In this document: in pieces, positions 985 through 63,243 of the stretch
How the letters are laid out: each line of letters opens with the position of its first letter
How positions within the stretch are numbered: the first letter of the stretch is position 1
DNA from: Vulcanimicrobiota bacterium
GTDB taxonomy: Bacteria; Vulcanimicrobiota; Xenobia; Xenobiales; JADMJV01
Direction: 5' to 3'
Assembly: GCA_050250895.1 (NCBI GenBank)
Contig: JBFWNU010000001.1
Coordinates: 2,150,210-2,214,209 of the forward strand
Length of the DNA stretch: 64,000 nucleotides
The notes under the pieces: model-generated
What the model saw: the letters and a program-made list of their open reading frames with translations, nothing else
What the model was told of the DNA's origin: nothing
The model's database searches: none
Made by a program: the position numbers and the translations under genes

Positions 985-2079
985 TTATGCCCCGGGCGAA
1001 GCCACCGGGCTCCTTTTCCCCTCGGCGAAGCCGGCGCTCTCGGGTAGGACCTGGCGCAGGACTCTTAGCCAGTTGCCGCCGAGCACTTTGGCGATGTCTT
1101 CTTCGCTCCAGCCGGCGTCGAGCATGCGTTGCACGATGTTGACGGTCTCGAGCGGCGAGCGCAGGTCGGTGGGAAGGAAGCGAACGCCGTCAAAATCGCT
1201 GCCCAGGGCCACATGATCGATGCCGATCAGGTTGGCAGCGTGCTCGAGGTGGCGAAAAACGTCGTGGCTGGTGACTTTGGAGTGGTGTTCGTGCGAGAGA
1301 AAGTCGGGCACGTAGGTGATGGCCGCCACCCCTCCCGATTTGGCCAACAACTTGAGCTGGTCGTCGCTCATGTTGCGCTCGGTGTCGACCAGGGCCCGGC
1401 AGCAGCAGTGGGTGTTGACAAACGGCTTGGTGACGACGTCCATCAGGTCGTAAAAGGCCTGGTGCGACAGGTGGGCCATGTCGAGCATGATGCCGAGTTC
1501 TTCCATCCGTTGCACCAGCGTTCGACCGAAATCGGTCAGGCCGTAACGCTTGCCGTCGGGGGGCTTGCACCCCCCGGCCGCCCCGTTGTTGTGATTGTGG
1601 GTGAGGCCGATGGAGCGGATACCGAACCGAAAGAAAATCTCGAGGACATCGAGGTCATCGAGCAAGGGCGAAACCCCTTCGAGGGTCATCAGAAAGTGCG
1701 GTTTGCCGTCGTCCACGCAAGCCTCCAGCACTTGCCGGTCGGTGACCAGGGCCATCTCGCCGGCCAACTCATCGACCACCCGGTGGCCAACCTGGGTGAT
1801 CCAAAGAGCCGTGACCGTGCCTTGATGACGCGGAATCTCGGGGGGGATGTAGACGGCCATCAACTGCAGGTTGACCCCACCCTGCTGCAAGGCCTCGAGG
1901 TTGATGTTGAAATAGTCGGTGCCCCGCCCCCCGACAAAGTCGGCTCCGGCGAAGGCTACTCGCGCCAGGGTGTCGGCGTGGCCGTCGCAGAAAAAGTGTT
2001 TGTGGATCAAGTCCTGGGCGTCCATTGAATATTCTTCAATGGTGGAGCGGTCGGCTCCTCTTCGGATAGGCTCAGCCAC
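985..2079 (-). CDS. membrane dipeptidase (peptidase family M19, renal dipeptidase-like)
   Basis: Motifs HKHFFCDGHADTL, IGIDHVALGSDFDG and HxD/His-rich metal-binding pattern are typical of M19 dipeptidases. The true start may be the internal Met at ~2025 (MDAQDLIHKHFF...). Confidence 0.8.
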   Translation of the reverse strand: MAEPIRRGADRSTIEEYSMDAQDLIHKHFFCDGHADTLARVAFAGADFVGGRGTDYFNINLEALQQGGVNLQLMAVYIPPEIPRHQGTVTALWITQVGHRVVDELAGEMALVTDRQVLEACVDDGKPHFLMTLEGVSPLLDDLDVLEIFFRFGIRSIGLTHNHNNGAAGGCKPPDGKRYGLTDFGRTLVQRMEELGIMLDMAHLSHQAFYDLMDVVTKPFVNTHCCCRALVDTERNMSDDQLKLLAKSGGVAAITYVPDFLSHEHHSKVTSHDVFRHLEHAANLIGIDHVALGSDFDGVRFLPTDLRSPLETVNIVQRMLDAGWSEEDIAKVLGGNWLRVLRQVLPESAGFAEGKRSPVASPGA

Positions 2080-7236: not shown

Positions 7237-7291
7237 CCTCCGCCCTGGAACCCTGGCAGATCACTCGCCAAGTGGGGAGCTAGTCGAAGTT

Positions 7292-9022
7292 ATGAACCTG
7301 ATGAAAGATAGAACCTGGGACCACCGCTGGGGCTTTCGCGATACCGAGTTTCGCATCCAGGGCCAGCATGTCACGATGACCGGCGACCGCTACCCCCTCT
7401 CTGGGACGGTGATGCCCGAGTTTCTTCCCTTCGCCGAAGAGATGCTGGGGGTCAAGTTTCCCCTTGGGGAACCGCGCCCCGAGCGCGCTACCAAACCCGT
7501 TCCGGCGCCGCGCAACAACTCCGCCTTTCTGAAAGAACTCGAGGCGACGTTTGATAGTTCGCTGTTCACCCAGGAGCCCGGGGTGCGCTTGCGCCATTCT
7601 CACGGCCAGACGACGGCCGACGAGCTTTACGTGGTGCTTTATCGCGAGATCGAGCGGGTCGCCGATCTGGTTTTTTACTGCGAGACCCACGACCAGGCGC
7701 TCAAGCTGGTCGAGTTGGCTGCTCGGTACGATGTCTGTCTGGTTCCCTTTGGGGGCGGCACCAGCGTTAGCTGCGCCCTCAAGCTACCGGCCGATGAAGA
7801 GCGGATGATCGTCTCGGTGGACACCACCCGCATGAACCAGGTGGAGTGGATCGACCGGGTCAACCTGCGAGCCTCGGTGCAGGCCGGCATCACCGGCCGC
7901 GAGCTCGAGGCTCTACTGGCCTGCGAAGGTTTCACCTGCGGGCACGAGCCTGACAGCATCGAGTTCTCGACCCTGGGCGGCTGGATCGCCACCAACGCCA
8001 GCGGGATGAAGAAAAACCGCTACGGCAACATCGAAGACATCGTCGAGAACGTCACCGTGGTGACCCCCCGGGGCGTGGTGACCCACACCCAGGACCAGCC
8101 GCGGGTGAGCATGGGCATCCAGCCCAAGCAGTTCTTCTTCGGCAGCGAGGGCAATCTGGGCCTGATCACCAGCGCCGTCATTCGCATCCATCCCAAGCCT
8201 GAAGTGACGCGCTATGCCTCCCTGGTGTTCCCCACCTTCAAGGCCGGCACCGACTTTCTCTTCGCGCTCTCGCGCAGCGGCGTCTTGCCGGCCAGCATTC
8301 GCCTGCTCGACAATATCCAGTTCCGCTTTGGCGGAGCGCTCAAGCCCAAGGCCAGCCCTTCGAAGTGGTTCAAGCGGAAACTCGAGAAGCTCTTCCTCAC
8401 CAAGGTGATGAAGTTTCATCCTCACGAACTGGCCGCCGCCACCGTGGTCATGGAAGGCAGCAAGGCCGAAGTCGGCCAGCAACAGAAGATCCTCTACAAG
8501 CTTGCCTGGGAACATGGCGGCTTCCCCGGCGGCGAAGCCAATGGCAAGCGCGGCTATATGCTGACCTACGCCATCGCCTACATTCGCGACTTTTTGGCCC
8601 AGTATCACATTCTGGGCGAGACCTACGAGACGACCGTGCCCTGGACCCATATCCACCAGGTGATCGAGGCCGTGAAAACTACCGCCGAAAAGGCCCATCG
8701 CGAGAACAACCTGCCCGGACGCCCCTACGTCTCGCCCCGCATCACCCAGATCTATCACACCGGTGTCTGCATCTACTTCACCCACGGGTTCTCCCACCAC
8801 GGAGTAGACAATCCCGAAGAAGTCTTCAGCAAGATCGAGCACCAGCTGCGCGAGACGATCATGGATGCCGGCGGCTCGATCTCGCATCACCATGGCGTGG
8901 GCAAGCTGCGGAGCGACTTCATGCAGCGAGCGGCCACCCCAACCGCCATCGAGCTGCTCAAAGAGATCAAGACCGTTCACGATCCCAAAAACGTGTTCGG
9001 CGTTCGCAACAACGTGCTCTAA
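7292..9022 (+). CDS. FAD-linked oxidase, alkyldihydroxyacetonephosphate synthase (AGPS)-like
   Basis: FAD-binding PCMH-type segment (LVPFGGGTSVSCAL). C-terminal HHGVGKLRSDFM motif. Overall length (576 aa) and layout match alkyl-DHAP synthase family members of ether-lipid pathways. Confidence 0.75.
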   Translation: MNLMKDRTWDHRWGFRDTEFRIQGQHVTMTGDRYPLSGTVMPEFLPFAEEMLGVKFPLGEPRPERATKPVPAPRNNSAFLKELEATFDSSLFTQEPGVRLRHSHGQTTADELYVVLYREIERVADLVFYCETHDQALKLVELAARYDVCLVPFGGGTSVSCALKLPADEERMIVSVDTTRMNQVEWIDRVNLRASVQAGITGRELEALLACEGFTCGHEPDSIEFSTLGGWIATNASGMKKNRYGNIEDIVENVTVVTPRGVVTHTQDQPRVSMGIQPKQFFFGSEGNLGLITSAVIRIHPKPEVTRYASLVFPTFKAGTDFLFALSRSGVLPASIRLLDNIQFRFGGALKPKASPSKWFKRKLEKLFLTKVMKFHPHELAAATVVMEGSKAEVGQQQKILYKLAWEHGGFPGGEANGKRGYMLTYAIAYIRDFLAQYHILGETYETTVPWTHIHQVIEAVKTTAEKAHRENNLPGRPYVSPRITQIYHTGVCIYFTHGFSHHGVDNPEEVFSKIEHQLRETIMDAGGSISHHHGVGKLRSDFMQRAATPTAIELLKEIKTVHDPKNVFGVRNNVL

Positions 9023-9504
9023 CAGACCTGGCCCGGCCATTCGGCAACACCCACTGCCGAATCGGAGTAGGCTCTCTAGCGATTTTTATGGTTGAGGCCG
9101 GTGCGGCTGGAAGGTCGTTCCCCCGTCGTTCAAGACGCCGCCGGCCGCCGGCCAGGTGGTGCCGGATTCTGCACGTGGTGCTGCCGTACTCGGGCGAGTT
9201 TGCTCTTCCGTGCTTCCGTGCTTGAGAGTCGTCTCCATATTGATCGGGCCGCCACCGAGCCAGCGCCGTTTTGAATACCCCGTTCGATGTCAAAACCCTA
9301 ATCCATAAATTCGCCAGGACGCTCACCCCACGGCCCCCACAACCCTCTCCGTGCCCTCCTGATCTCCGCGGTTTATTTCTCACGCGCGCCACTGGCGAGC
9401 CACACCGACCTGTGCTTCGACCACGCGCCGCGCCGCCACGACAGACGCGCTGAAGGCGACGCCTACTCCGAATCGCGCCAACCCGCCAAAAGCCAGGCCA
9501 AAAC

Positions 9505-10410
9505 TTGCCTTGGTCGGGCCGGCGGGCCGGCGGGCCCAACCGGGGTTCACCCCGTGATTTCACGGTGTGGACAAGCTTTCAGCGTCGATTCAGGGCCGCC
9601 TGGCAAGCTGGGGGCATGATTGGTTCCGTGTCCGCATTTCGCCCCGGGCTGCCGGCCCGCACCGCCAGCAAGGCTACGGATGAACTCGAGCAGCGCATCG
9701 AGATGCTCGAGACCCTGTCTCGTTCTCGTGGGGGCAGCGAGTTGCAGGAGAAGATCAAGCAGACTCGGGCTTTACTCGCCGAGGCTCGCAAGCCCGACCT
9801 GACCTTCAGCGACCAGACGAAGACCGAGGTCCGCGACTATCTCAAGGGCAGTCAGGTACTACCCCAGGCTTTCGACACCCACCAGAACGAGCAACTCGAG
9901 GTTTTCGGCAAGCTCGTCCAACGCGGGATGCACTTCCGCCGTTCCGGTCAGGAATTGCCCCCCGATCAGGCATTTCTCGGGCTCATCGCCAAGCCTTATC
10001 ACGCCCTGGACGAGCAGATCTGTTTCCAGTGCCACCTTCCCCAGGGCATTCGTGCGGTTACCCTCAGGCCCCAATATCTGCCGGCCGTCAACTTCTTTTT
10101 GGAGCGCACCCTCGAGGGCGAGGTCTTCTATCGCAAGCCCGATGCCAAGTCGTCGATGTTCGACCCCCAGCCCAATCGCGACGGCTATGTCGAGATCAAG
10201 ACCGTAGATGATTTCGTCAGCCATTATCACGACCATCCCGAGCAAGCCGTGGTTCGCTTTGGGGGAGTTTACACCACTCGAGAGCAGATCCAGAGCGACC
10301 GCGACTACATCGCGGCGCTGGCCGCCAATCACGACAGCAATCTGATCGATGACCTGGGCGACCACCTGATGGTGGGTGGGGTCATGCTCGACAAGAACCC
10401 CGACTGGTAG
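9505..10410 (+). CDS. hypothetical protein (function unknown; convergent with the SagB gene)
   Basis: 301-aa ORF; the likely true start is the internal Met (MIGSVSAF...) at ~9616. No recognisable catalytic motif; contains CFQCH. Confidence 0.4.
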   Translation: MPWSGRRAGGPNRGSPRDFTVWTSFQRRFRAAWQAGGMIGSVSAFRPGLPARTASKATDELEQRIEMLETLSRSRGGSELQEKIKQTRALLAEARKPDLTFSDQTKTEVRDYLKGSQVLPQAFDTHQNEQLEVFGKLVQRGMHFRRSGQELPPDQAFLGLIAKPYHALDEQICFQCHLPQGIRAVTLRPQYLPAVNFFLERTLEGEVFYRKPDAKSSMFDPQPNRDGYVEIKTVDDFVSHYHDHPEQAVVRFGGVYTTREQIQSDRDYIAALAANHDSNLIDDLGDHLMVGGVMLDKNPDW

Positions 10411-10435
10411 TCGCGGCCGCGCCAGCGGCCATTTG

Positions 10436-11638
10436 CTACATCAAGGCGAACTCGGCCACCGAGCTTTCTTCTTCATAGACTGTCCCGGCCAGGCGGCAGA
10501 ACAGGTCAGAGTCGCCGTAGCCGAGGGCGCAGACCGAGAGGCCCAGGGCGGTGGCCACCAGATACATCGTTTGGAGGATGGCTCCGGCGTTCTTGAGGGC
10601 CAGCGAGTAGGCGATGGCGCTGTATTTCCAGGCCAGCGCGGGAAAGCGGGCCGCCATCGTGACCACCACCGCGGGCGGACGCTCGATACCCAGGGCCCAG
10701 GCGGCGTTGAACAGCATATCGAGGCGAGCCTGGGGGGCCGAGGAGAAGAGTTCCAGAGTGTGGTCCAGGGGATCGTAGCGGTAAAAGCCCGGCTCGAGCC
10801 CGACGCAGGCTCCCACCGTCAGATAGAGTTCTTGCTCGAAGATGGCTCCGGCGCTGGCGAAGGGGCGCAGCTTGAGGCCCGGCTCCTGGGCCCGGGCGCA
10901 GTAGTGCAGAAAGTCTCCCAGGCGTCCAAGGTCCAGGGGGGGTTGGCCGGGTTGGCGGCGGCTGCGGCGGTTGGCCAGCACCTCGTCGAGAGCTTGAGCG
11001 AGACGACCGTTGGGAGGGCCCAGAGCCAGGCGACCCTGGGGCTGGCGAGGCCGGCGCTGGGGGGGGTCGAGTCGGCCCGCAAAACGGCGGGTCGCTCCCA
11101 TGGGGTGGCGATGGCGGCCCCGTCGGGAGCGGGCGTGGAAGAACAGGTCGTGGAATTCCCAGACGGCCAGGTGAGGCGCTTCATCTTCGTCCGGCCCGGT
11201 GACGTGGAGGCCGCACTCGGCCAGCAGCTGGCAACCCCAATCCGGGACCAGCAGGGCGGGCAAAGCGCACGGGTCGAGGACCACAATCCTGGCCAGGGCC
11301 CGGGGTGACTCGATCAGCAGCAGGCGACCCTCGCGCCGGCAACAGGCAAAGCGCGACAACCGATAGGTTGCCTCGGGTTGGTAGGCCAGGGCTTGATAGT
11401 AGGGCGAGAGCAGTTGGCGGGCCAATCTTGGACCCTCGGCGGTGACCAGCACTTCTTCCAGGCAACCGTTGCGCAGCAACAGTTCGGCCCGGGTCAACAG
11501 TTCCACGGCCTGGTGGGGGGCAAGGGCGGTCAGCTGTTGACGGGTCAGGCCCTGCTCGAGGTCGGGGCTCAGTTCTGTCCATTGCCGAGGATCAGCTCCG
11601 GCAATCGCCCGCAGACGCACTTCAGACGTTGAGGTCAA
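10436..11638 (-). CDS. SagB-type FMN-dependent dehydrogenase (nitroreductase fold; TOMM azoline oxidase) with ~190-aa N-terminal extension
   Basis: C-terminal half has the nitroreductase/SagB pattern (PSAGAIFEQELYLTV...AWKYSAIAYSLALKNAGAILQTMYLVATALGLSVCALGYGDSDLF). The 5' end overlaps the upstream YcaO gene by 17 nt, indicating translational coupling. Confidence 0.8.
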   Translation of the reverse strand: MTSTSEVRLRAIAGADPRQWTELSPDLEQGLTRQQLTALAPHQAVELLTRAELLLRNGCLEEVLVTAEGPRLARQLLSPYYQALAYQPEATYRLSRFACCRREGRLLLIESPRALARIVVLDPCALPALLVPDWGCQLLAECGLHVTGPDEDEAPHLAVWEFHDLFFHARSRRGRHRHPMGATRRFAGRLDPPQRRPRQPQGRLALGPPNGRLAQALDEVLANRRSRRQPGQPPLDLGRLGDFLHYCARAQEPGLKLRPFASAGAIFEQELYLTVGACVGLEPGFYRYDPLDHTLELFSSAPQARLDMLFNAAWALGIERPPAVVVTMAARFPALAWKYSAIAYSLALKNAGAILQTMYLVATALGLSVCALGYGDSDLFCRLAGTVYEEESSVAEFALM

Positions 11639-13712
11639 CAGGGTTCACCTCGGCTTCGGGAGTGGAGGCGGTGAGCCAACCCATGGCCACCGGGATGTCG
11701 TAGAGGCGCCCCGGAGCCAGGCGACGCCAGTGGTGGCGCATGCCGGGCACCACCACTCGGGCCACGGGCAGGCCGACATCCGAGCGAGTCAGGTCGACCA
11801 CCAGCATCTCGAGCCCGCGGGCGGCTACCAGTTCGTTGATGGTGGCCAGCGGATCGGGCCAATCCGGCAGCCGCAGGTCTTGCCAGGGCCGTCGCTCGGC
11901 ACCGGGGCGAAGATAGGCCCAATCGTCTACGCACAGGTTATAAGAGCTGAGTTCGTCGCGCTCGGGCAGGCCGCGGCCGGGGCGCTGGGCCTGGGAAAGG
12001 GGTTGGGGCAGGAACTGGTTCATCTCGGTGAGGGCGCGCATGATGGCCTGGCGAGGGTCGTGGTGAGCTCCGAAAGCCAGCGTGAGCTGGTCGGGCTCGG
12101 GTGCGCGGCGGCGGCTGACGGCCACGCAGGCTGGGATGGCGAAGTCGGCGGTCACATCCAGCACCCAGAAATCGCGGTCCATCTGGTCATAGGCCCGACG
12201 CAGGCGCCCGAGATAGTCGTCATCCAGGCCGGTCAGGTCAATCTCGGGGCGGGTCAGCCGGTGATACCACCACATGGCCACGCTGTCTCGCTCGACCAGT
12301 TCGAAAAAACCCTGGACCACGGCGTCCTCGAAGCTCGCCCCGGCGGCGCAGCCGTTGGATTCACCCACTGTGTAGAGGTGGTCGGCTTCGGTGTAGCCAT
12401 AGTGGACAAAGCCCGCGGCCAGATAGCGCCAGCCTTGGTGGGTCAGCGACCAGGCCTTTACCCAACGGATTGGCTGGTTCTCGTCGAGGGGGCGGGGCAC
12501 TCGGAGCTTGGGCGAAGAAACGCGGCCGCCCCCCTGCTCGAACTGGCGCTGGCTAAAGAGCATACAATGGTTGGGATGGATGGCCCGCTCGCCCAGTTCG
12601 AGACAGCTGGCCACGCGGTGAGGCTCTTCGCCGCGCCACAGCGAGCTGTGGCGCTCGAGGGCTTCGGCCAGCGCACTGACCCGGGCCTGGGCCGCGGTGG
12701 GTCCCTTCCCCCCCGCGAAGCTCTCGCGTCGGGTCTTCCACTGCTCAAGACTTTTGGCCAGCTGAGGGCGCTGGTAGGTCGAGCGAAAGACGTGCAAATT
12801 GTGGCTCAGTAAGGGCTCGAGGCGGCTGACCAAACCGGTCAGCGGGCTGACGTGGTGGCTATAGGTTTGGTAGAAGGCCTCAGCATCGAGCTGGCGGGAT
12901 AGGTTGGCCGTGCCGAGCCGCGGCGGCCCCGGCTGGCCAGGCGCTTGTCCGCAACGGTGGCATTGCGGACGTCTTATCACGGTGTGCTCGTGACTCTGGC
13001 CGGTAGCGGTGGCGAAGGTCATCAGCTTCTCGAGTCCCGCTCCGGTGGCAGCCCGGATCAGCAACTTGTTGACCACCAGATTGTAGACCAGGGCCAGCGA
13101 GGTGGGCAGGGTTGGGGCGGGGGTCGGCCGAGAAACCACCAGGCAGCGCGGCTCGCGGTTGCGTTCGAGGCGGTGGGCCAGGCAGTGCCAGCAGGCTCCG
13201 GGCTCGCCCAGCACCGGACCCAGCCAGGCCTCGACTCCGCCGGGCTTGACCAAGAAGAAGGGGCCTTGCAATTCGCCCAGCTCTGGTTGGAGATAGTCGT
13301 CCACCAACACCACCAGGAGGCCTCCGTCGACCCCGACACTGGCTGACTTGAAGGCCTCCAGCAGTGGCTCGTCGGGTTGGCTCGAGAGATTCACCACGTT
13401 CACCGACAGGGGTGGGGGGGCGAGGTCCTGGGCCTGCCAGTACGGGTGCGTGTCGTGGTTGACCAGCAGGCTGTCGACCTTGAGTTGGACCACCGCCTCC
13501 AGCAATTGGTGCGAGGGATACTGGCTGGCGAGCGCTCGCACCAATCCGGTGAAATCGAGGCCGCCGTCGAGTAATGGCAGCAGGTCGTTGTAGACTTTAC
13601 CCTCGAGCAGACGATCGCCGCCATCGGTCAACAGTAGAACACCGGCCTGGTCTGGTAGGGGGGCCGCCGTCAGGTGAGCTTTTAGCCGCAGGGGGTGGGC
13701 TAGAAAGTCCAC
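11622..13712 (-). CDS. fused TOMM cyclodehydratase: E1/ThiF-like docking (C) domain + YcaO (D) domain
   Basis: 696 aa. The C-terminal half carries the YcaO ATP-binding signature (ESNGCAAGASFEDAVVQGFFELVERDSVAMWWYHR) and a proline-rich C-terminus typical of azoline-forming YcaOs. The N-terminal half is Rossmann-like E1-type without an obvious glycine loop, as in SagC/PatD N-domains. Begins 3 nt after the precursor ORF stop. Confidence 0.85.
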   Translation of the reverse strand: MDFLAHPLRLKAHLTAAPLPDQAGVLLLTDGGDRLLEGKVYNDLLPLLDGGLDFTGLVRALASQYPSHQLLEAVVQLKVDSLLVNHDTHPYWQAQDLAPPPLSVNVVNLSSQPDEPLLEAFKSASVGVDGGLLVVLVDDYLQPELGELQGPFFLVKPGGVEAWLGPVLGEPGACWHCLAHRLERNREPRCLVVSRPTPAPTLPTSLALVYNLVVNKLLIRAATGAGLEKLMTFATATGQSHEHTVIRRPQCHRCGQAPGQPGPPRLGTANLSRQLDAEAFYQTYSHHVSPLTGLVSRLEPLLSHNLHVFRSTYQRPQLAKSLEQWKTRRESFAGGKGPTAAQARVSALAEALERHSSLWRGEEPHRVASCLELGERAIHPNHCMLFSQRQFEQGGGRVSSPKLRVPRPLDENQPIRWVKAWSLTHQGWRYLAAGFVHYGYTEADHLYTVGESNGCAAGASFEDAVVQGFFELVERDSVAMWWYHRLTRPEIDLTGLDDDYLGRLRRAYDQMDRDFWVLDVTADFAIPACVAVSRRRAPEPDQLTLAFGAHHDPRQAIMRALTEMNQFLPQPLSQAQRPGRGLPERDELSSYNLCVDDWAYLRPGAERRPWQDLRLPDWPDPLATINELVAARGLEMLVVDLTRSDVGLPVARVVVPGMRHHWRRLAPGRLYDIPVAMGWLTASTPEAEVNPVDLNV

Positions 13713-13715
13713 CTC

Positions 13716-13943
13716 TTACGAGGCGGAATAGGTGCAGCCGCAGCTGTCGCAGCCGCCATCACAGCCGTCGGTGCCCGGACCAGCGTTGACCGCCAGGGTT
13801 TGGCGGATATCCAGTTCTCGCATGGCGGGGGTGATCCAGGGCTTTTTGCTATCGGCTGCGTCCATCTTCGCAAGTTCTTCGAAGGTGCTTAGCCTCCTTC
13901 TGGGGTTGACCGCTTGGATTGGCAAAGATACCATGCCGTCCAT
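13716..13943 (-). CDS. RiPP precursor peptide (leader + Cys/Ser/Thr/Asp-rich C-terminal core ...GTDGCDGGCDSCGCTYSAS)
   Basis: Small ORF immediately 5' of, and co-oriented with, the YcaO-SagB operon. C-terminal 19 residues contain 4 Cys, 4 Ser/Thr and 3 Asp in Gly-rich spacing, then stop. An alternative in-frame start at 13865 (MDAADSKKPWITPAMRELDIRQTLAVNAGPG...) gives a 49-aa peptide and avoids overlap with the divergent kinase gene. Confidence 0.6.
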   Translation of the reverse strand: MDGMVSLPIQAVNPRRRLSTFEELAKMDAADSKKPWITPAMRELDIRQTLAVNAGPGTDGCDGGCDSCGCTYSAS

Positions 13944-14796
13944 GGCCAGTCGCTACCGCGCCTTCGAACTCGAAATCACCTCTGAATTCCCCCTTCCAGC
14001 CGCGCCCGGCAGTGGCGACCTCGAGGCGGACGTAACCATCGTGGCGGGCCGGGTGCCCGGGAGTCTGAGGTTTCCGTCGGACACTGGTTTGTTATTTCAG
14101 GCGGCTCCCGATGAATTCTTGCTGTCGGTCGCGGGCATTGCCCGTTACTATGTCGAGGCGGGTCATCAGATCACCGTCGAGCCGGCCGCGGGCGCCAAAG
14201 CCGACGCGGTCGAGGTTTTTCTCTCGGGCTCCGCCATGGGGGCCCTATTGCATCAGCGCGGCCTGCTGGCCTTGCATGCCTCGGCGGTCGCCCTGAGAGA
14301 TATGGCCGTCGTGTTCGCTGGACCCTCGGGGGCCGGCAAATCGACCCTGGTGAGCACCCTGATAGGGCGTGGCTACGAGATCCTTTGTGACGATATCTGT
14401 GTCCTTCGCCAGGACCTGGTGTTGCCGGGTTATACCCGCCTGAGGCTCTGGAAAGATAGCCTGGAGGGATTGGGCCTCCAACCCGGGCGACGGATCCGCG
14501 AGGGTATCGAGAAGTTCGAGTTCGACCACTCGGGTCGCGCCGGCTCGCTGCCCTGTCGGCAACTGTTTTTGCTTGGCTCAGGAGAAGCCGTCATCGAGCC
14601 GGGCAGCCGTCTCCAGCATCTTATTCGCAACACCTATCGGCGCCGCTATTTGCGGGGTCTGGGCCGGCAGGAGCAACACTTTCAGGCCTGCGCCCGGCTG
14701 GCCGGTCGGCTGCCCATGGCCTGGCTCGAGCGCGGCCGCGTGTTCGGACAGCTGCCCGGGCTGCTGGAGGAATGGACGGGTGCGGCCAGGGGATGA
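13933..14796 (+). CDS. HprK C-terminal-domain-like P-loop serine kinase (RiPP-associated HPr kinase homologue)
   Basis: Walker A GPSGAGKST embedded in AVALRDMAVVFAGPSGAGKSTLVSTLIGRGYEILCDD, as in the HPr kinase/phosphorylase C-domain. The annotated ORF starts at 13732; the start is chosen at the internal Met 13933, divergent from the precursor. Confidence 0.6.
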   Translation: MPSMASRYRAFELEITSEFPLPAAPGSGDLEADVTIVAGRVPGSLRFPSDTGLLFQAAPDEFLLSVAGIARYYVEAGHQITVEPAAGAKADAVEVFLSGSAMGALLHQRGLLALHASAVALRDMAVVFAGPSGAGKSTLVSTLIGRGYEILCDDICVLRQDLVLPGYTRLRLWKDSLEGLGLQPGRRIREGIEKFEFDHSGRAGSLPCRQLFLLGSGEAVIEPGSRLQHLIRNTYRRRYLRGLGRQEQHFQACARLAGRLPMAWLERGRVFGQLPGLLEEWTGAARG

Positions 14797-15632
14797 GGCG
14801 GCTGGTCTGGCTGGCGTCTTACCCGAAGTCGGGAAACACCTGGTTTCGAGCCTTCCTGCGGGCCCTGTTCAGCGGCTCGGTCACTCTTAACGCGCTGGGC
14901 TTCGAGCACTCGGGACGGCGTCGCGACTATGACGAGCTACTGGGCATCGAGACGGCTTATCTTCACGATCATGAACTCGAGCTGCTGCGGCCGGAGGTCT
15001 ACCGGGCCAAAGCGCGCGAGTGCCCGCACCCGGCCCTGGTGGTCAAGACCCACGAGGGCTACCGCAAGCTCGGCGACGGCGGTTGCTTGTTTCCTCCCGA
15101 GTGTACTCGGGGAGTGGTCTATCTGGCCCGCAATCCTCTGGACGTGGCGGTGTCTTACGCCTTTCATCTGGAAGAGGGCGACTTCGATCAGGCTATCGCC
15201 AAGATGGGCAGCCAGCAGTCCTGGGGTATGGCTCGCGACCGCTACAGCCATCAGACCAGCCAGTTGCTGCCGGACTGGAGCACCCACGTCTCGGGCTGGC
15301 TCGACAATCACGAATTGCCGGTGCATCTGGTTCGGTATGAAGCACTGCTCGCGCAACCCGAGGCGACCTTCGCCGAGGCCCTGGCCTTTCTCGGGCTGGA
15401 GTACTCGCCGGAGCAGGTATCCCAGGCCGTCGAGTTGAGCAGCTTCGAGCGCTTGCGTGAGCAGGAGCAGCGACAGGGCTTCTGGGAGAAAATGCGAGTC
15501 GGGGTCGAGTTCTTTCGGCGCGGCCAGGCGGGCCAATGGCGTCAACACTTGAGTCCTGAGCAGAGGGACAGGGTGTTGTCCCAGCACCACAACGTGATGG
15601 CCAGACTGGGCTATCTTCCGGAGGGTGACTAG
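14772..15632 (+). CDS. PAPS-dependent sulfotransferase family protein
   Basis: 5'-phosphosulfate binding loop YPKSGNTW, followed by the RNPLDVAVSY 3'-phosphate-binding region. The alternative start at ~14793 forms an ATGA overlap with the kinase stop. Confidence 0.75.
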   Translation: MDGCGQGMRRLVWLASYPKSGNTWFRAFLRALFSGSVTLNALGFEHSGRRRDYDELLGIETAYLHDHELELLRPEVYRAKARECPHPALVVKTHEGYRKLGDGGCLFPPECTRGVVYLARNPLDVAVSYAFHLEEGDFDQAIAKMGSQQSWGMARDRYSHQTSQLLPDWSTHVSGWLDNHELPVHLVRYEALLAQPEATFAEALAFLGLEYSPEQVSQAVELSSFERLREQEQRQGFWEKMRVGVEFFRRGQAGQWRQHLSPEQRDRVLSQHHNVMARLGYLPEGD

Positions 15633-15939
15633 CCAAAGAATCGAATCACTCCCCATGGGTTTGGGTAGGGACGCCATTTTGGTGCGACATCGTCACGTGG
15701 TCTCGACCGAGCTACCGGATGGAGAGGCGGCTCTGATGGACATGCAGAGCGGGACCTACTTTCATCTCAACAGTGTGGCTAGCAGGCTGTGGCAGCTGAT
15801 CGCCGAGCCGATCTCACTGGCTCAGGTTTTGACCGCTCTCGAGGATGAGTTCGAAGTCGAAGCGGACCGCTGCCACGACGAGGTGGTCAGCCTGGTGACG
15901 CAGTGGCTCGAGCGTGGCTTGAGCCAGGTCGTCGCGTGA
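15625..15939 (+). CDS. PqqD-family protein (stand-alone RiPP recognition element, lasso-peptide B1-like)
   Basis: ~100 aa. Pattern LMDMQSGTYFHLNSVASRLWQLI...VLTALEDEFEV...VVSLVTQWLERGL typical of PqqD/RRE proteins. Overlaps neighbours on both sides (operon). Confidence 0.75.
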   Translation: MTSQRIESLPMGLGRDAILVRHRHVVSTELPDGEAALMDMQSGTYFHLNSVASRLWQLIAEPISLAQVLTALEDEFEVEADRCHDEVVSLVTQWLERGLSQVVA

Positions 15940-17687
15940 CCCTGGCTGGCTCTTCGGGTAGCCACGGAGTCTATCAGCTGGAATGGCCCGTCACCCCGTG
16001 GTGCCGGGACCGGGTCAGTTTGGTGGAGGGGCTCGAAAGCCGGGGGCTTGCGGTGGGGGGTCACGTGCGTCTGGACTATGGCAAAGAGCTGCAGGCTCGA
16101 CTGGGGCTGGCCGAGGGGACGTCGGCGGCCGAACTGGTGCTGGCCGCCTGGCGAACGCGGGGGCCCGATTGCCTGACGATGCTCTTTGGAGAATTCGCCT
16201 TTGCCGTCTATGACGGCGAGGCCCTCTGGCTGGTTCAATCCCCGTTCGTGCGCTGGCCAATCTACTACACCGAGACTGCCGAGGGCCTGGCCTTTCATTC
16301 CAGCGCCCGCGCCCTGCACCGCCTGCTGGACCGAGCACCTCGACTGCACGAGCGAGCCCTGGCCGCCTGGGCAATTCGGCAGCGTCTGGTGGAACCCAGC
16401 GATACCTTTTTCGAAGGGGTTTCGCGGGTCGAGCCGGCTGGATTGGTGAAGGTGGTCGAGGGGCGGGTGGTGAGCCGCCATTGCTGGTGGAAGCCAGTCT
16501 GGAGTCCGGCCCCGGCCGGTCGCGACCTGGCCGAGCTGGCTGCCCACCTCACCGATCAGGCCGTTCGCTCGCGGTTGGGCAGTCGACCGGTCGGGTGCTA
16601 TCTGAGCGGAGGCCTGGACTCGAGCACTCTGACGGCCCTGGCCTGCCGGGCGCTAGGGCAGCAGGGGCGCCGCCTGATAGCCTTCTCTTCGGTCTTGCCG
16701 CCCGGATACGCCGGCCCGGAGCGCGACGAGCGAGAGCCGATCGGCGTGATGGCTCGGCATTTCGAACTGGAGGTAGTCGAAGTGGTGCCCACTCGGGGTC
16801 CGACCTGCGACCTGCCGGGCCACACCGAGCTGGCCGAATCCCCCTACCTATTCCCCAAGCAATATGTCTTCGCGGCGATGCTCGAAGCGGCCCGCCGACG
16901 CGGCCTGGCCACCATTCTCGATGGCGGCTTCGGAGAGTTGACCCTCAGCCACGATGCGCCGACGGCCTTTGCTTATCTGGCTCGTCGGGGTCGCTGGCGC
17001 GAGCTGGCCGGATTGGTCCAGGCCTGGGCGCCGCGGGCCGGGCTGCCCTGGTGGAGAGTATGGTTCGCGACGGTGCTCAGGCCGCTTCTTCCAACGCGCC
17101 GAGTTCCGGCGCCCTGGCTGCCTCTGCAGGCCGACTTTGTGGCCCGCCAGGGTCTTCGCCCTCGGTTTGAAAGGCCCCGCGCCCAGGGGTGGTTGCCACC
17201 GATGGAAGGGCTGACATCGGTCCTGACCGCGGTAGGAAGCAGCGCCCTGCCGTTCTATGACCGCCATTTCGGGGTCGAGGTGCACAAGCCGTTTCTCGAC
17301 CGTCGCCTGATCGAGTTCTGCCTGACGCTCGACCCGGCCGACTTCTGGCTCGACGGCTGGCGGCGGGGGCTGGTGCGCCAAGCCATGCGCGACATCCTGC
17401 CGCGGGCCATCGTCGAGCGGACCGATCGGGGCGCTTTCGCGCCCGACTTCTTTGCGCGCTTTCGCCAGGGAGCTCCGGCCTTGCGAGCCGAGTTTGGGTC
17501 TCAGGGGCCCACCGATCTGGCCGCCCACTACTTCGACCTGGAAAGCCTGAGAAAGCTGCTTGACCAGCTCACCAGCCGTCCCGCCAGCGAGAAGTCACCC
17601 CAGGGAGCCCAGGCCAAGCAGGTTCTGCTGCGCAGCCTGGGGGGCGTCCGCTTTCTACGAAGTCTTCACTCCCAACCCGTCCAGTGA
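15903..17687 (+). CDS. asparagine synthetase (AsnB)-like PP-loop ATP-pyrophosphatase (lasso-cyclase / amidotransferase-like)
   Basis: PP-loop VGCYLSGGLDSST. N-terminal Ntn-glutaminase-like fold (GEFAFAVYDGEALWL) lacks the catalytic N-terminal Cys, as in lasso-peptide lactam synthetases. 594 aa. Confidence 0.8.
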   Translation: MARAWLEPGRRVTLAGSSGSHGVYQLEWPVTPWCRDRVSLVEGLESRGLAVGGHVRLDYGKELQARLGLAEGTSAAELVLAAWRTRGPDCLTMLFGEFAFAVYDGEALWLVQSPFVRWPIYYTETAEGLAFHSSARALHRLLDRAPRLHERALAAWAIRQRLVEPSDTFFEGVSRVEPAGLVKVVEGRVVSRHCWWKPVWSPAPAGRDLAELAAHLTDQAVRSRLGSRPVGCYLSGGLDSSTLTALACRALGQQGRRLIAFSSVLPPGYAGPERDEREPIGVMARHFELEVVEVVPTRGPTCDLPGHTELAESPYLFPKQYVFAAMLEAARRRGLATILDGGFGELTLSHDAPTAFAYLARRGRWRELAGLVQAWAPRAGLPWWRVWFATVLRPLLPTRRVPAPWLPLQADFVARQGLRPRFERPRAQGWLPPMEGLTSVLTAVGSSALPFYDRHFGVEVHKPFLDRRLIEFCLTLDPADFWLDGWRRGLVRQAMRDILPRAIVERTDRGAFAPDFFARFRQGAPALRAEFGSQGPTDLAAHYFDLESLRKLLDQLTSRPASEKSPQGAQAKQVLLRSLGGVRFLRSLHSQPVQ

Positions 17688-18040
17688 GCTTCCCAGCTGC
17701 CATCATCGCGCCGAAAGACGACCCAGCTTCTGACCCGATACATTTGCCCTTCCTCGATCCAGGTGACGGGGTGCGAACTGACGTAGCGCTGGACCTGTTC
17801 GTCGGTGAACGTGCGCACGGTCACCTTCGGGGGTGGTCGGTGGGCCGGGGCAGGCGCTGACTGGACCGGCGCCTCGGCCACCTGCGTGGCTACCGGTTGC
17901 TGGGGTTGGTGCGGGGCCGAGCCGGGAGCCAGGGCCAGCGAGAGTAAGCACATCAAGACGACAAAGGCGAGAACGTAGCGCACTGGCTTAGATTCTGTGC
18001 CCACTTCAAGCGGTCCTCGTTGGAGGTCCTGGGCGCCCAT
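17666..18040 (-). CDS. hypothetical small exported/membrane-anchored protein
   Basis: Hydrophobic N-terminal segment ([19 protein letters not shown]) followed by a Pro/Ala/Gln-rich linker. Overlaps the ends of both neighbours; the real start is probably internal. Confidence 0.3.
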
Positions 18041-20296
18041 CCACGGAAGGAACCGGCGGGGTCATCAGAGATGCGACAAGAGGTCAATTTGACCGGCGAG
18101 GGTTTTCAGCTCGAAATAGAGCGGGGCCGATTTGAATGGCCCGGCGACGGGTCATTGCGCTTCTATGGGATTCCTGGGGCGTATCTTTGGCTTGACCCTT
18201 CCATGAAGATGATGCTACTGCCCTTCGTGCAAGAGGTCGGTAGAGATCTATTCACTCTGTTGGTGGCCCGGTCATCGAGTCACGGTACCCGCGAAGACTA
18301 CGAACAGATGGTCAACGAGCTGGCCCCCACCTTCGACCAGGGCTTTTTGGCCTGGGGTGAGGCCGTTTCGACCGCTGGCTGGGGACGCTTTGAGCTGTGC
18401 GAGTGCCAGCCCGAGCGGTGCCACGCGGTGGTAATCATCCGCAACGCCTGGGAGCGCATTATGCAAGCCGGCCTGGCCGCCGACGAACGCTGGGGATGCC
18501 CTTTCCTGCAAGGCAAGATCATCGGCATCTTTTCCCATGCTTTCGGCCGCAACTGTTGGGCCGACGAGACCCGGCGCGACGACCTGGGCGAGCACGATGT
18601 GGCCTTCACGGTGGCCCCCTCGACCAAGACCATCGAAACCGAAATCGAGTTGCTCCGCCAGGCCAGTATGCAAGAGCGCGAGCGGGCCCTGGCCGCCGAG
18701 GTGCGCAAGAAGACCGACGAGTTGCAAGAGGCCCGGGCCGCCCTGGAAGAGTATTCTCGCCAACTCGAGACCAAGGTGGCCGCGCGCACCCGCGAGCTCG
18801 AGCGAAGCAACCTGCAATTGCGCGAGGCCAAAGCCAAGGCCGAAGAGGTCAACGAACTCAAGTCGATGTTCCTGGCCAGCATGAGCCATGAGATCCGCAC
18901 CCCCATGAACGGCGTGATCGGCATGACCAGCCTGCTCGAACGCACCGAACTCGATAGCGACCAGCGCGAATTCGTCGAGATTATTCGCAAGAGTGGCGAC
19001 TCGTTACTCAATATCATCAATGACATCCTCGATTTCACCAAGATCGAGGCTGGCCGGATCGACCTCGAGTCTCTGCCTTTCCAGCCCGAGGATGTGCTCG
19101 AAGAGGCCCTGGACCTGGTAGCCGCCCCGGCCACCGCCAAAGGTCTCGAGTTGGTCTCGCTGGTTTGTGACCAGTTGCCTCGACGGGTCGAAGGCGACCC
19201 TAGCCGGCTGCGCCAGGTGATGGTAAATCTGCTGGCCAACGCCGTCAAGTTCACCCGTCAGGGCGAAGCCCGGATCGAACTCTCGGCCCAATCAGAAGGG
19301 GATTTCTGGCGACTGGTCGGCAAGGTCAGCGACACCGGGCCCGGCATACCTCAGGCTCCTCGTCGCGATCTTTTCGAGCCCTTCGCGGGAGCCGTGATCT
19401 CCCGCGGCAAGGGCACCGGGCTGGGCCTGCCCATCAGCCGCCGTCTCTGTCGCTTGATGGGCGGCGACATCGGCTTCGAGACCGAGGTCGGGCGGGGGTC
19501 GACCTTCACTTTTTCGGCCCTCGTCCGAGCCCTTCCCAGCCAGGAGTACGAGCCTGAATTGACCGGTGCCGACATTCTGGTGATCGAGCCTGACCAGGGC
19601 CTTGGGGCCAGCCTGGTGGGGATGGTAGAGCGCCTGGGGGGCAAGGCTCGCCGATTGGCGGCCCCACCTCAGAGTTGGGGTCAAGAAGACGCGGTGTTGG
19701 TCAATTGGGCCGTTGGCAGCCAGCTCAAAGACTGCCCTCTACCAGTCGTGTTACTGGCTCCGCTCGGTTGTTCCAAGCGACCCGAACACGCCCTGACCCT
19801 GGTCCACAAGCCGGTCAAACGCTCCACGCTGGTGCGAGCGCTCAGGCCTCTCATCAAGCCGGGCGTAACTCGCCAGTCGCTGGACGACGGCGCCCAGAAT
19901 GGCGAGTTCTCTGGCCTCCGGGTTCTGTTGGTCGAGGACAATCTGGTCAACCAGAAGGTGGCCAGAATGATGCTGGCCCGACTGGGCATTCGAGCCGATC
20001 TGGCCAGCAACGGTCTGGAAGCGATCGAGGCGGTGGGGCGGCAACCTTACGATCTCATCCTCATGGATATTCAGATGCCTGAACTCGACGGCATCGGGGC
20101 CACCCACCGCATTCGCGACTGGGAAGAGCGAGAATCCCACCCGCGCCAGCGGATCGTGGCCGTCACCGCCGGGGCCATGGAGTCAGACCGCCAGCGCTGT
20201 CACCGAGCCGGGGTCGACGCCTTTTTGTCCAAGCCGTTCAAGTTACCCGAACTGGAACGGGCTATCCGAGCAGTTTTGCGGGAACCGCGAGGCTAG
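18020..20296 (+). CDS. hybrid sensor histidine kinase / response regulator with N-terminal uncharacterised sensory domain
   Basis: HisKA H-box [18 protein letters not shown]. HATPase_c (N, G1, G2 boxes: [15 protein letters not shown]). C-terminal receiver domain ([10 protein letters not shown]...[14 protein letters not shown]...K). Coiled coil before HisKA. Probable start at the internal Met (~18071). Confidence 0.85.
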
Positions 20297-53490: not shown

Positions 53491-53754
53491 ATGCTTGTGA
53501 TCAGAAATAGCCAGCAACTTGCCGCCGCCGAGCCGGCCGTCGAACACGATCGGATGCTCGTGACCAGCGCGGCCGTTCCCTCGCAGAGCGAGCATCGCCA
53601 TCGCCACCAGGAAGAGCGCCGCTCAGGCCGGTGGGAATGCGACGAAGAAGGCTATGACGAAGTGATTTTCAGCGAAGCCATCGAGGAAGAGCCCTATTCG
53701 GACTATGACGTCCAGGGGATCATCGGCAACCTGACTCAGGCCCTCAAGCTCTGA
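53491..53754 (+). CDS. possible small acidic protein (87 aa)
   Basis: In-frame Met with GGAGAGAGA upstream. Locally AT-richer codons, His/Glu-rich. It is the only part of the long ORF 52747..53754 not antisense to another gene. Confidence 0.3.
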   Translation: MLVIRNSQQLAAAEPAVEHDRMLVTSAAVPSQSEHRHRHQEERRSGRWECDEEGYDEVIFSEAIEEEPYSDYDVQGIIGNLTQALKL

Positions 53755-54596
53755 AAGAAGCCCTCGCCGGCCAGCTTGATTTTCTCTAGCTTGTTGAGAC
53801 TGGCCCGTTCTTTAAGCACCCGCGGACCCATCTGGGCAATGCGCTCGAGCAGGCCGCGATAGATTCGGGTCATGGCCACCAGTGAGGGGCGGCTGACCGA
53901 GTCGACCCTTTCCACCAGCGGCTCGGACTTTTCGTAGTAACCTCGCGCCCTCTCGACTTCGAAAGCGAGCAGCCGGGCGAAGCCCGGGCCGGGGTTGCCG
54001 GCCAACAGGTCGGCAGGCTTGACTTCGAAGCGTTCCAGATCTTCCAGAGGCAGATAGATGCGCCCCCGCTCGGCGTCCTCGCTGATGTCGCGCAGGATGT
54101 TGGTCATCTGAAAGGCGATGCCACGGGCTTCGGCCTCGGCAAAAGCCTCATCCGAACCATCGAAACCGAAGATGTGGATGCAGACCAGCCCGACGGTCGA
54201 GGCTACCTGATAGCAGTAGCGATAGAGTTCCTCGAAGGTTTGATAGCGTGAGACCGACAGGTCCGCCTCGGCCCCGTCAATGAGCTCGCGAAAATAGCGG
54301 GTGGGGATCGCGTAGCGCTGTACCGTTTCGTGAAAGGCCGGCAGGATGGGGCTCGAGTCCGCTTGTTGGCCCGGCTCGACCGAGGCCCGCCAGCGCGTAA
54401 GCAGCTCGTCGCGGTCGCCCACGATCTCGTCGTCGGACACATCGTCGCAGTAACGAAAGAAGGCATAGACGGCGCAAAGCGCGTCCTGGCGCTGGCTGGG
54501 TAGCAGGCGGATGCCGTAGTAGAAGTTTTTGGCTCGCTCTTTGGTGACTTGGCGACAGTGCCGATACGAGTCGGCCAGGCTAATCATGGCGGGCAA
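53736..54596 (-). CDS. squalene/phytoene synthase family protein (HpnC/HpnD-type)
   Basis: Asp-rich motifs (YCDDVSDD...; NILRDISEDAERGRIYLP) and YCYQVASTVG region characteristic of the trans-isoprenyl diphosphate head-to-head synthases. Confidence 0.8.
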   Translation of the reverse strand: MPAMISLADSYRHCRQVTKERAKNFYYGIRLLPSQRQDALCAVYAFFRYCDDVSDDEIVGDRDELLTRWRASVEPGQQADSSPILPAFHETVQRYAIPTRYFRELIDGAEADLSVSRYQTFEELYRYCYQVASTVGLVCIHIFGFDGSDEAFAEAEARGIAFQMTNILRDISEDAERGRIYLPLEDLERFEVKPADLLAGNPGPGFARLLAFEVERARGYYEKSEPLVERVDSVSRPSLVAMTRIYRGLLERIAQMGPRVLKERASLNKLEKIKLAGEGFFQSLRA

Positions 54597-54679
54597 AGCT
54601 TCTCGTTTGGGCTCTCAACTCCTGTGAAAGCCAAAAGGGCCACCCGTTTGGGTGGCCCGGCAAACCAGATAGTTCGAAA

Positions 54680-55057: not shown

Positions 55058-55158
55058 TGTATTTGTGTAACCTTTCTAGCCGTCTCCGACTGAGGTTCGT
55101 TCTCCAGTTGTTGAGATTATTAAATATTCAGCTGAAAAAAGGCTGAAAGCCTGGGTAT

Positions 55159-60089: not shown

Positions 60090-60153
60090 AAGGATGGGGG
60101 GCGTGGATACCCCGTGGTAGTCCTTTCCTCGGATGCCTTCTCTATGCTCAAGA

Positions 60154-60973: not shown

Positions 60974-61017
60974 GAAAAGCCCCGCTGGTGTCGGGGCTTC
61001 GTCTTTGGCTCGCTGCG

Positions 61018-62130: not shown

Positions 62131-62131
62131 T

Positions 62132-63133: not shown

Positions 63134-63243
63134 GGTTACACCTCTAGGATCGGTTTCGGAGCCCCGGGTTCTAGTCGCCTGCCGAGATTCCTTTCTATCA
63201 GGCGAAATGGCCGCGCGCCCTGAGCCGCGAAAGAAGCCCTTGC

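Follow-up and report, generated by a model that had tools for sequence, protein, structure and literature searches.

A putative hybrid lasso-type and azole peptide gene cluster without a linked B2 protease in an Eremiobacterota genome

Results

Organization and inheritance of the cluster

We analyzed a 64,000-nucleotide stretch of the genome of a Vulcanimicrobiota bacterium, here assigned to the Eremiobacterota (GenBank assembly GCA_050250895.1, contig JBFWNU010000001.1, positions 2,150,210 to 2,214,209 of the forward strand); this whole stretch is referred to as the window. Positions 10436..17687 contain a biosynthetic gene cluster that we favor, on balance, as one hybrid pathway for a ribosomally made, post-translationally modified peptide (RiPP), combining a lasso-type precursor, recognition protein and cyclase homologue with azole-forming enzymes. 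Phase analysis of G+C content at third codon positions (GC3), together with the listing of open reading frames (ORFs), resolves the cluster into seven genes in two divergent, tightly packed operons (Table 1). The minus-strand operon runs from the precursor gene through a fused E1-like/YcaO gene to a ThcOx/SagB-type oxidase gene, and the plus-strand operon encodes, in order, an HprK-like kinase, a sulfotransferase, a PqqD protein and an AsnB-like protein, with neighboring genes overlapping or abutting. The YcaO gene starts 3 nt past the precursor stop codon, the oxidase gene overlaps the end of the YcaO gene, and a spacer of 67 bp separates the precursor gene from the divergent kinase gene. The sulfotransferase gene overlaps the kinase stop by 4 nt, and the PqqD gene, which an earlier note on this DNA had correctly placed as a separate gene beside the AsnB-like gene, overlaps the start of the latter by 4 nt. 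The kinase start was chosen by homology to the related locus L002 and the sulfotransferase start was taken from orthologues. NCBI labels genes of the cluster 'asparagine synthetase B' (the AsnB-like protein is identical to MGE0489561.1), 'PqqD family protein', 'TOMM precursor leader peptide-binding protein' and 'hypothetical protein', the last being its annotation of the precursor. A promoter and terminator scan of 9000..18500 returned counts at the level of shuffled sequence.

Table 1. Coordinates of the cluster genes and of further genes in the window.
Feature	Position	Strand	Sequence evidence
Precursor peptide, 49 aa	13716..13865	-	Sub-threshold NF033524 match; orthologues L001, L002, P0121; distant homologue L003
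Fused E1-like/YcaO cyclodehydratase, TruD/LynD type, 696 aa	11622..13712	-	PF02624 1.2e-85; TIGR03604; TIGR03882
SagB/ThcOx-type FMN azoline dehydrogenase, ~400 aa	10436..11638	-	PF22767, PF00881; TIGR03605
HprK-like (ScmC-family) P-loop kinase, 287 aa	13933..14796	+	Sub-threshold Hpr_kinase_C, HprK_rel_A/B
Sulfotransferase, 279 aa	14793..15632	+	PF00685 8.1e-29
Stand-alone PqqD-type RiPP recognition element, apparent lasso B1 type, 94 aa	15655..15939	+	PF05402 2e-16
AsnB-like ATP-dependent macrolactam synthetase homologue (lasso C), 583 aa	15936..17687	+	PF00733 2.9e-34
Squalene/phytoene synthase	53736..54596
NAD-dependent epimerase	55159..56235
PNP_UDP phosphorylase	56054..56911
Family-21 glycosyltransferase	56908..57990
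Fused beta-lactamase/NamZ protein, among hopanoid-type genes	57984..60089
Radical SAM protein with DUF3463	62132..63268

The same seven functions recur in a different order at the distant locus L003, where one unit carries the AsnB-like and then the ThcOx gene, a second, on the other strand, carries a sulfotransferase and an HprK-like gene, and a third carries HprK-like, PqqD, YcaO and precursor genes. Components of the two clusters are mutual closest relatives (identity between window and L003: YcaO 40%, ThcOx 44%, PqqD 32%, AsnB-like 36%). The L003 YcaO scores 451 bits against the window YcaO, compared with 447 bits for P0126, the best of more than 500 other homologues, and the closest other YcaO relatives have no PqqD, HprK or AsnB-like neighbors. 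Judged by these comparisons, the seven-gene set is inherited as one unit, since mutually closest proteins with the same seven functions meet in L003 and such neighbors are missing at other YcaO relatives. Across our profile and pattern searches, the hybrid family was seen only in the metagenome-assembled genome (MAG) of the window, in two or three related Eremiobacterota contigs and in L003. A metagenome scan with the YcaO alignment gave 11 loci, none with a PqqD, HprK, B2 or AsnB-like neighbor, and a scan with the cyclase alignment gave 115 pattern matches, none of which was confirmed.

Candidates for related clusters were rejected at several loci. The nearest non-orthologous YcaO genes, P0126 and P0127, lie in a stand-alone context and in a LanM-like hybrid, and weak matches of a 'C' hidden Markov model (HMM) near YcaO genes in L079-L081 and L086 proved to be GMP synthases.

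That the two halves are transcribed divergently would also fit two unrelated clusters lying back to back by chance, namely a thiazole operon and a kinase-sulfotransferase-PqqD-AsnB operon whose own precursor is unlinked. We regard this as very improbable: the only precursor bears the lasso-type leader, the C-terminal Ser and the Cys-rich tail together, the halves are interleaved within the operons of L003, and all parts co-diverge.

The precursor peptide and its predicted leader junction

The precursor of 49 residues consists of MDAADSKKPWITPAMRELDIRQTL, a predicted leader of 24 residues, followed by a predicted core of 25 residues that reads AVNAGPGTD and then GCDGGCDSCGCTYSAS. A longer minus-strand ORF, 13716..13943, ends in AVNAGPGTDGCDGGCDSCGCTYSAS, and contains the residues GPG-T-D/G-C-D-G-G-C-D on which the earlier note was built (a slash marks a proposed leader/core junction here and below); the conserved gene is the 49-residue version. 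Our profile search for further precursors returned only the L003 peptide and P0121, the latter from an orthologous ENA contig of short length; the family is rare, and the sample is small.

At the predicted junction, the window precursor reads MDAADSKKPWITPAMRELDIRQTLAVNAGPGTDGCDGGCDSCGCTYSAS, the L002 and P0121 precursors read QTAAVN(S/A)GPGTDG, L001 has GPGMDG, and the L003 precursor contains KRSWKAPSYERLPINLTRFTAGPGTDGGCGCAGCACTGTPTSCACACACMSSGS. Cleavage at QTL/A would place K at -18, W at -15, P at -12, M at -10, L at -7 and T at -2 in the window peptide; cleavage at LTR/F in L003 gives the same register with Y at -10. This is the register that PbaA's leader shows when crystallized with PbaB1 (K-18, W-15, P-12, hydrophobic -10, L-7, T-2; PMC13381572), and both peptides have the [Y/W]xxPx-hydrophobic motif with Thr at -2. 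In addition, residues 7-33 of the window precursor match NF033524, a model of the paeninodin family of lasso peptides (19.8 bits, E 4.6e-4, cutoff 27). Together, these features support a lasso-type precursor.

Within the predicted cores, the Asp of GPG(T/M)DG is the sole acidic residue conserved in all five known precursors, falling at core position 9 in the window lineage and at position 8 in L003. At the level of sequence, Ala1 and Asp9 are kept in four orthologues, the L003 counterparts being Phe1 and Asp8. The cores contain no Lys, which leaves the N-terminus as the only amine. The most probable ring joins Ala1 to Asp9, and behind it comes a Cys-rich tail of 16 residues that ends in Ser, as do all five precursors. 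Tail residues G34-S49 are identical in 4/4 orthologues; of its Cys residues C11, C15, C18 and C20, three stand in a Gly-Cys and one in a Ser-Cys context. The paeninodin core, AGPGTSTPDAFQPDPDEDVHYDS, starts AGPGT and closes at Asp9.

In the earlier note, the leader had been ended at GPGTD, giving a core G1-C-D-G-G-C-D7-SCGCTYSAS with a Gly1-Asp7 ring. The residues are present, and Gly1 with a seven-residue ring is the commonest lasso arrangement. However, the Thr that this register would place at -2 is Met in L001, the corresponding L003 core (GGCGCAGC...SSGS) has no Asp or Glu, and the leader motif would lie at W-24/P-21, 9 residues out of register with W-15/P-12 (PMC13381572). C2 and C6 would also sit inside the ring, although they belong to the same Gly-Cys set of predicted heterocyclization sites as the rest. 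The hallmark pattern invoked for this junction (Thr at -2, a small residue at +1, an acid at 7-9) does not exceed chance, since two of the three Thr residues with room for a core satisfy it. We consider this register the least probable of the readings discussed here. RQTL/AVNAGPGTD appears the better fit, because the Thr at -2 and the leader register are conserved in orthologues and L003 keeps an acidic residue. Of the lasso-compatible topology proposed earlier, the lasso-type precursor and the placement of the AsnB-like protein in the cyclase clade (below) stand, but the GTD/G junction and the Gly1-Asp7 ring do not.

The nearest cyclase relatives outside the hybrid family, L004 and L025, have no YcaO, yet their precursors retain the T-2/D8-9 arrangement: two in L004 (...PRTR/QQSNHGID and ...RYTR/HGATLGAD, both T-2 and D8) and one in L025 (...QDTA/TNQNIVIHD, T-2 and D9).

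Predicted first core residues vary among these peptides, being Gln, His and Thr in L004 (10210-10626, minus strand) and L025 (~9450-9706), and Phe in L003. Each is unusual at position 1 of a lasso peptide, and a leader peptidase that prefers other residues at P1' might account for this.

Two further observations concern the 5' side of the precursor gene. A strong Shine-Dalgarno-like sequence, GAAGGAGG, lies at 13892-13899 on the minus strand, 27-34 nt 5' of the precursor ATG (13865); at this spacing, which is too large, it would not be a normal ribosome-binding site. An in-frame extension of 26 codons (MDGMVSLPI...) is open in the window and in L001 and absent in L002.

The recognition protein and the cyclase homologue

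The PqqD protein matches PF05402 at 60.5 bits (cutoff 23.4), and its best NCBIfam match is lasso_PqqD_Bac. Its best solved relatives are PbaB1 of a paeninodin-like pathway (9x90_B, E 4.7e-10), followed by TbiB1 and TfuB1. We mapped the leader-contact residues of PbaB1 (list from PMC13381572) onto PqqD through a HMMER alignment: Y38, L41, L65, E70, V71 and L92 are identical, Y39F, I44V, I48L, D68E and Y69F are conservative replacements, and N40H, E75R, Q79E, F83L and L87W are changes. These comparisons support its assignment as a lasso B1-type recognition protein.

The AsnB-like protein has an intact PP-loop (SGGLDS) and, as the earlier note had recognized, no N-terminal catalytic Cys; its sequence opens with VTLAGSSG, and no Cys occurs before about residue 23. 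Because there is no Cys1, it would not be expected to use glutamine-derived ammonia. The best NCBIfam model is NF033535, the lasso peptide isopeptide bond-forming cyclase (188 bits, E 2.9e-55), followed by a macrolactam cyclase model (126 bits) and asn_synth_AEB (125 bits). A genome scan yielded 70 related loci, which we labeled by their neighbors, and a neighbor-joining tree was built from 74 homologues. The window protein groups with L001, L002 and L003, with L004 and L025 as the next branches, inside a large clade whose members have PqqD, HprK-like kinase and often B2 neighbors. The comparison with lasso cyclases drawn in the earlier note holds up on this tree, where the group lies well apart from the context-free asparagine synthetase homologues. 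Most positions conserved in at least 85% of B2-associated cyclases are also kept in the AsnB-like protein.

Two motifs depart from this pattern. The Asp of the GGD motif, which would correspond to a Mg-binding Asp of AsnB and an essential Asp of McjC, is Glu in the window (Glu334; 16929-16943, LDGGFGELT), L001, L002, L003 and L004, and Asn in L025 and L020; it is invariant in all other 67 homologues, including the context-free asparagine-synthetase-like proteins. This change is a clade signature of the B2-less branch. In the four hybrids (window, L001, L002 and L003), the Asp of the N-domain 'ARD' motif is also replaced, by Ser. Altered chemistry in this clade is possible, because the GGD Asp is replaced and the 'ARD' Asp lost.

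The AsnB-like enzyme might instead carry out another ATP-dependent activation of a carboxylate, such as forming an amide on an Asp or at the C-terminus, or closure of a lactone or thiolactone onto a Ser, Thr or Cys side chain, and the resulting peptide would be a polythiazole that is linear or cross-linked in some other way. The GGD change is the main reason to weigh this reading, and the loss of the 'ARD' Asp speaks for it too, as do the lack of B2 in the window and a score far under the lasso-cyclase cutoff, with next-best models of similar strength. Set against it are the lack of Cys1, the nesting of the enzyme among lasso cyclases with B2 among their neighbors, a lasso leader in exact register with one conserved Asp at ring position 8-9, cores in which only the N-terminus offers an amine, and the retention of T-2/D8-9 in L004 and L025 even where YcaO is missing. 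We judge other chemistry to be unlikely, if still worth weighing, and continue with the macrolactam synthetase reading.

Azole-forming enzymes, kinase and sulfotransferase

Both enzyme classes expected of an azole-containing RiPP are encoded beside the Cys-rich core: a YcaO protein with an E1-like domain and a flavin mononucleotide (FMN)-dependent SagB/ThcOx dehydrogenase. The YcaO protein matches TIGR03604 at 237.8 bits (cutoff 219.25) and TIGR03882 at 79.3 bits (cutoff 36.9), its best solved relatives being TruD, LynD and MusD (~1e-107), and the oxidase matches TIGR03605 at 132.9 bits (cutoff 78.4), with CyaGox as its best solved relative (4e-43). The winged-helix domain PF21084 (WHD_DUF4423_like), recorded on most close YcaO homologues (~750 aa), was absent from the window and L003 YcaO proteins even at E<=1, and the L003 PqqD gene is translationally coupled to its YcaO gene. 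Taken together, the missing domain and this coupling weakly suggest that the heterocyclase also uses the stand-alone PqqD.

As for length, the window YcaO (11622-13712) is ~50 residues shorter in its N-terminal third. The L003 YcaO gene lies at 6467-8707.

Orthologues of the kinase carry PF27840 (ScmC), and a solved relative is the HPr(Ser) kinase 3tqf (E 1.4e-4). An HprK-type kinase accompanies a precursor family in which every known member has a C-terminal Ser, and in linear precursors HprK homologues add phosphate to the C-terminal Ser (PMC8498205). Since the L003 core has no Tyr, Tyr is unlikely to be the general target of the sulfotransferase.

Absence of B2 and candidate leader proteases

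A Pfam search of every GC3-supported gene in the 64-kb window found no lasso B2 protein (PF13471), no ABC exporter and no S26-type peptidase. We also built a B2 HMM of our own from 28 B2 proteins at related loci; run with --max on six-frame ORFs of at least 40 aa, it gave a best window match of E=24, compared with E<1e-4 for true B2 proteins. The earlier note had seen no B2 near the cluster, and our searches widen this to a span reaching 16 kb on the upstream and 46 kb on the downstream side of the AsnB-like gene. The lack of B2 is therefore genuine within the window, which covers 64 kb of the 3.95-Mb contig that carries MGE0489561-566 (locus tags around AB7S38_10165).

Two genes that had been put forward as sources of a leader protease do not bear this out. 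The protein encoded at 9616..10410 (given previously as 9505..10410) has no Pfam, NCBIfam or PDB match and is absent from L003; across 15 aligned homologues, none of Cys, Ser, His and Asp is conserved, and Glu is not conserved either. The window's one S8 protease, at 30987, lies 13 kb off behind unrelated genes and is a generic subtilase fused to CBM48; a PatA-like role found no support either, since its best 60 solved relatives include no PatA or PatG.

The 9616-10410 gene (plus strand, 264 aa) belongs to a family so rare that 1.84 billion representatives yield 17 homologues, and it adjoins the cluster in L001 and L002 too. Its near-invariant residues are only Leu, Phe, Gly, Pro, Ala, Arg and Lys, and a C-terminal (I/V)GG(V/I) motif is conserved.

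Among related loci, B2 is a variable companion. It lies within 10 kb in about half of the 38 loci that have a cyclase, an HprK and a PqqD, and near-identical gammaproteobacterial loci differ in this respect, B2 being present in L013 and L016 and absent in L008 and L014. B2-less loci carry clear WxxP...T-x precursors ending in Ser. No member of the window subclade (L025, L004, L003, L001, L002) has a B2, although the L003 AsnB-like gene lies only 151 nt from its contig end (Logan SRR32001354). All-against-all clustering of the B2-less relatives revealed no shared alternative peptidase; recurrent near them were only ABC transporters, Asp/Asn beta-hydroxylase-like genes, extra sulfotransferase-like genes and nucleotidyltransferases.

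The gammaproteobacterial loci (L008, L009, L013, L014, L016, L019, L021, L023 and L044, several of them in sponge-associated MAGs) have features of their own. Each has 3-6 precursor genes, whose products carry a PPPPP stretch upstream of the WxxP leader and a C-terminal Ser; a pair of HprK-like kinases, a sulfotransferase gene and one for an Asp/Asn beta-hydroxylase-like protein accompany them. In several peptides of this group, the first acid after the T-x junction falls at 9-11, not 7-9.

Precedents for leader removal without B2 have been published. Synthesis of pseudomycoidin, a lasso peptide of the paeninodin-like kind, proceeds in vivo without B1 or B2, with cellular proteases cutting the junction, and Zyubko et al. 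2019 noted a cyanobacterial cluster with a cyclase, a precursor, a kinase and no B genes (PMC6993621). Because of these two cases and the published peptidase of the linear polyphosphorylated peptides (LPP), the absence of B2 is not new in kind.

The lack of B2, of an ABC transporter and of any other cluster-linked peptidase in 64 kb could also mean that the cluster is a remnant left after loss of B2 and the exporter, with no mature product. This seems improbable to us. The seven genes are intact and under purifying selection across three orthologous loci in as many genomes (dS 0.2-1.0; ratio of nonsynonymous to synonymous substitution rates, dN/dS, 0.08-0.28 for all seven, with 0.10 for the precursor and 0.20 for the AsnB-like gene), the same B2-less gene set occurs in the distant L003, and the Cys-rich tail is invariant.

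Other features of the window

A hopanoid-type gene set occupies 53736-63268 (Table 1). Elsewhere in the window, tandem paralogous genes for lipoprotein-like alpha/beta hydrolases (2085-4147, plus strand; 359 and 328 aa) follow a gene for an M19 membrane dipeptidase (985..2079, minus strand), a sensor histidine kinase at 26519-28366 (minus strand) has the unusual domain order FHA-GAF-HisKA-HATPase, and two adjacent large genes at 28149-30914 (minus strand; 345 and 575 aa) have a good GC3 signal and no Pfam match.

Discussion

We read the seven genes as one cluster for a hybrid RiPP: a C-terminally phosphorylated macrolactam, either lasso or branched-cyclic, with a polythiazole tail and a leader that is cut by an enzyme encoded outside the cluster. 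Judged from sequence, we consider this reading somewhat better than an even proposition. By homology and motif register, the paeninodin-type leader would be bound by the stand-alone PqqD/B1. On the leader-bearing peptide, the TruD/LynD-like YcaO and the ThcOx-like oxidase would convert C11, C15, C18 and C20 to thiazoles, as their enzyme families suggest, and the HprK-like kinase would phosphorylate Ser25, as in paeninodin and pseudomycoidin; the sulfotransferase may add a further modification. The leader would then be released by cleavage behind Leu-1. The enzyme responsible, which the window does not encode, would be either a B2 at an unlinked site or a housekeeping protease, for which pseudomycoidin offers an experimental precedent. 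Finally, the AsnB-like enzyme would adenylate the Asp9 side chain and join it to the newly exposed Ala1 amine, giving a macrolactam of 9 residues from which the 16-residue polythiazole, phosphorylated tail would emerge either threaded (lasso) or free (branched-cyclic). The probable order is thus heterocyclization and phosphorylation, then leader removal, then macrolactam formation. Predicted monoisotopic neutral masses are 2266.787 for the linear core AVNAGPGTDGCDGGCDSCGCTYSAS and 2168.672 for the lactam with four thiazoles, with each phosphate or sulfate expected to add about 79.96. Zyubko et al. suggested that bulky C-terminal modifications can lock the thread (PMC6993621), and a rigid polythiazole tail bearing a phosphate could serve as such a lock.

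Several observations weigh against this reading. Profile scores fall well short of their cutoffs for the cyclase (188 bits compared with 525 for NF033535), for PqqD (55 bits compared with 80 for lasso_PqqD_Bac) and for the precursors (19.8 and 17.9 bits for NF033524, with no match to the L003 peptide). The GGD and 'ARD' changes in the cyclase and the missing B2 and ABC exporter point the same way. Further, the L003 ring would open with Phe, ring size would differ between lineages (8 and 9), and the tail has few bulky residues (only Tyr22), making a stable threaded fold uncertain.

A broader possibility, which we offer tentatively and with less than even confidence, is that these clusters define a natural RiPP family. 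Its products would have a lasso or branched-cyclic Ala1-Asp9 head and a polythiazole, phosphorylated and possibly sulfated tail, and would be made by GGE/GGN cyclases without a dedicated B2, with one B1-type PqqD serving the kinase, the cyclase and a cyanobactin-type heterocyclase whose own recognition domain appears to be lost, and with the rigid azole tail and C-terminal charge acting as the plug in place of bulky side chains.

Few RiPP scaffolds have been exploited as much as lasso and azole peptides. If the proposal is true, one short leader and one small RiPP recognition element (RRE) natively coordinate three enzymes (kinase, heterocyclase and macrolactam synthetase), which would provide a ready-made design rule for combinatorial RiPP engineering. 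The cluster is also a well-conserved addition to a little-studied B2-less branch of lasso-like pathways, a branch that genome-mining tools requiring B2 overlook. We know of no cultured Eremiobacterota producers of such compounds.

In its lasso-type parts, the cluster is close to the HprK-associated paeninodin/pseudomycoidin lasso clusters of Bacillota and Proteobacteria. It shares with them the WxxPx-hydrophobic leader with Thr at -2 in the PbaA register, the AGPGT ring motif, the C-terminal Ser, the HprK-like kinase, a discrete B1 RRE nearest PbaB1, an AsnB-like cyclase homologue without Cys1 and, with some of them, a sulfotransferase gene. Unlike them, it has no B2, nucleotidyltransferase or ABC exporter, it adds a YcaO, an azoline oxidase and a Cys-rich tail, its GGD Asp is Glu, and its host is an Eremiobacterota bacterium. 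The B-less cluster of Stanieria cyanosphaera PCC 7437, as noted by Zyubko et al. 2019, is similar in having a synthetase, a precursor, a PsmK-type kinase and no leader protease, and in such clusters the leader is presumably removed by a cellular protease (PMC6993621). In contrast to that cluster and to pseudomycoidin, the window cluster keeps a B1-type PqqD and adds the azole enzymes. The LPP clusters combine an RRE and an HprK kinase with a [Y/W]xxP leader and no B2, as here (PMC13381572); they have a SipW-like signal peptidase, a YxxP leader and no cyclase, whereas in the window the leader is WxxP, a homologue of the cyclase is encoded and S26-type peptidases are missing. As the LPP case demonstrates, the RRE and kinase module can work with a leader peptidase of quite another sort (PMC13381572).

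On the azole side, the cluster is like the cyanobactin enzymes TruD, LynD and MusD with ThcOx and CyaGox in its fused E1-like/YcaO protein, its FMN oxidase and its Cys residues beside small residues. Unlike cyanobactin pathways, it has no PatA/PatG subtilisin proteases or macrocyclase, no recognition sequences and no detected PF21084. In microcin B17, leader removal is carried out by the housekeeping TldD/E, encoded outside the cluster. The Gly-Cys-rich core and the pairing of a YcaO with an FMN dehydrogenase are common to both; however, microcin B17 has no PqqD/B1, kinase or AsnB-like enzyme and, where the window cluster has a fused, TruD-like cyclodehydratase, it uses the three-protein McbBCD complex. 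We found no natural lasso/azole cluster in the literature searched, only engineered hybrids and reviews; hybrids have so far been engineered through chimeric leaders (Burkhart et al. 2017, cited in PMC8498205). The cluster is a hybrid of known kinds: B-less lasso clusters have already been published, and the azole hybrid did not turn up in the literature searched.

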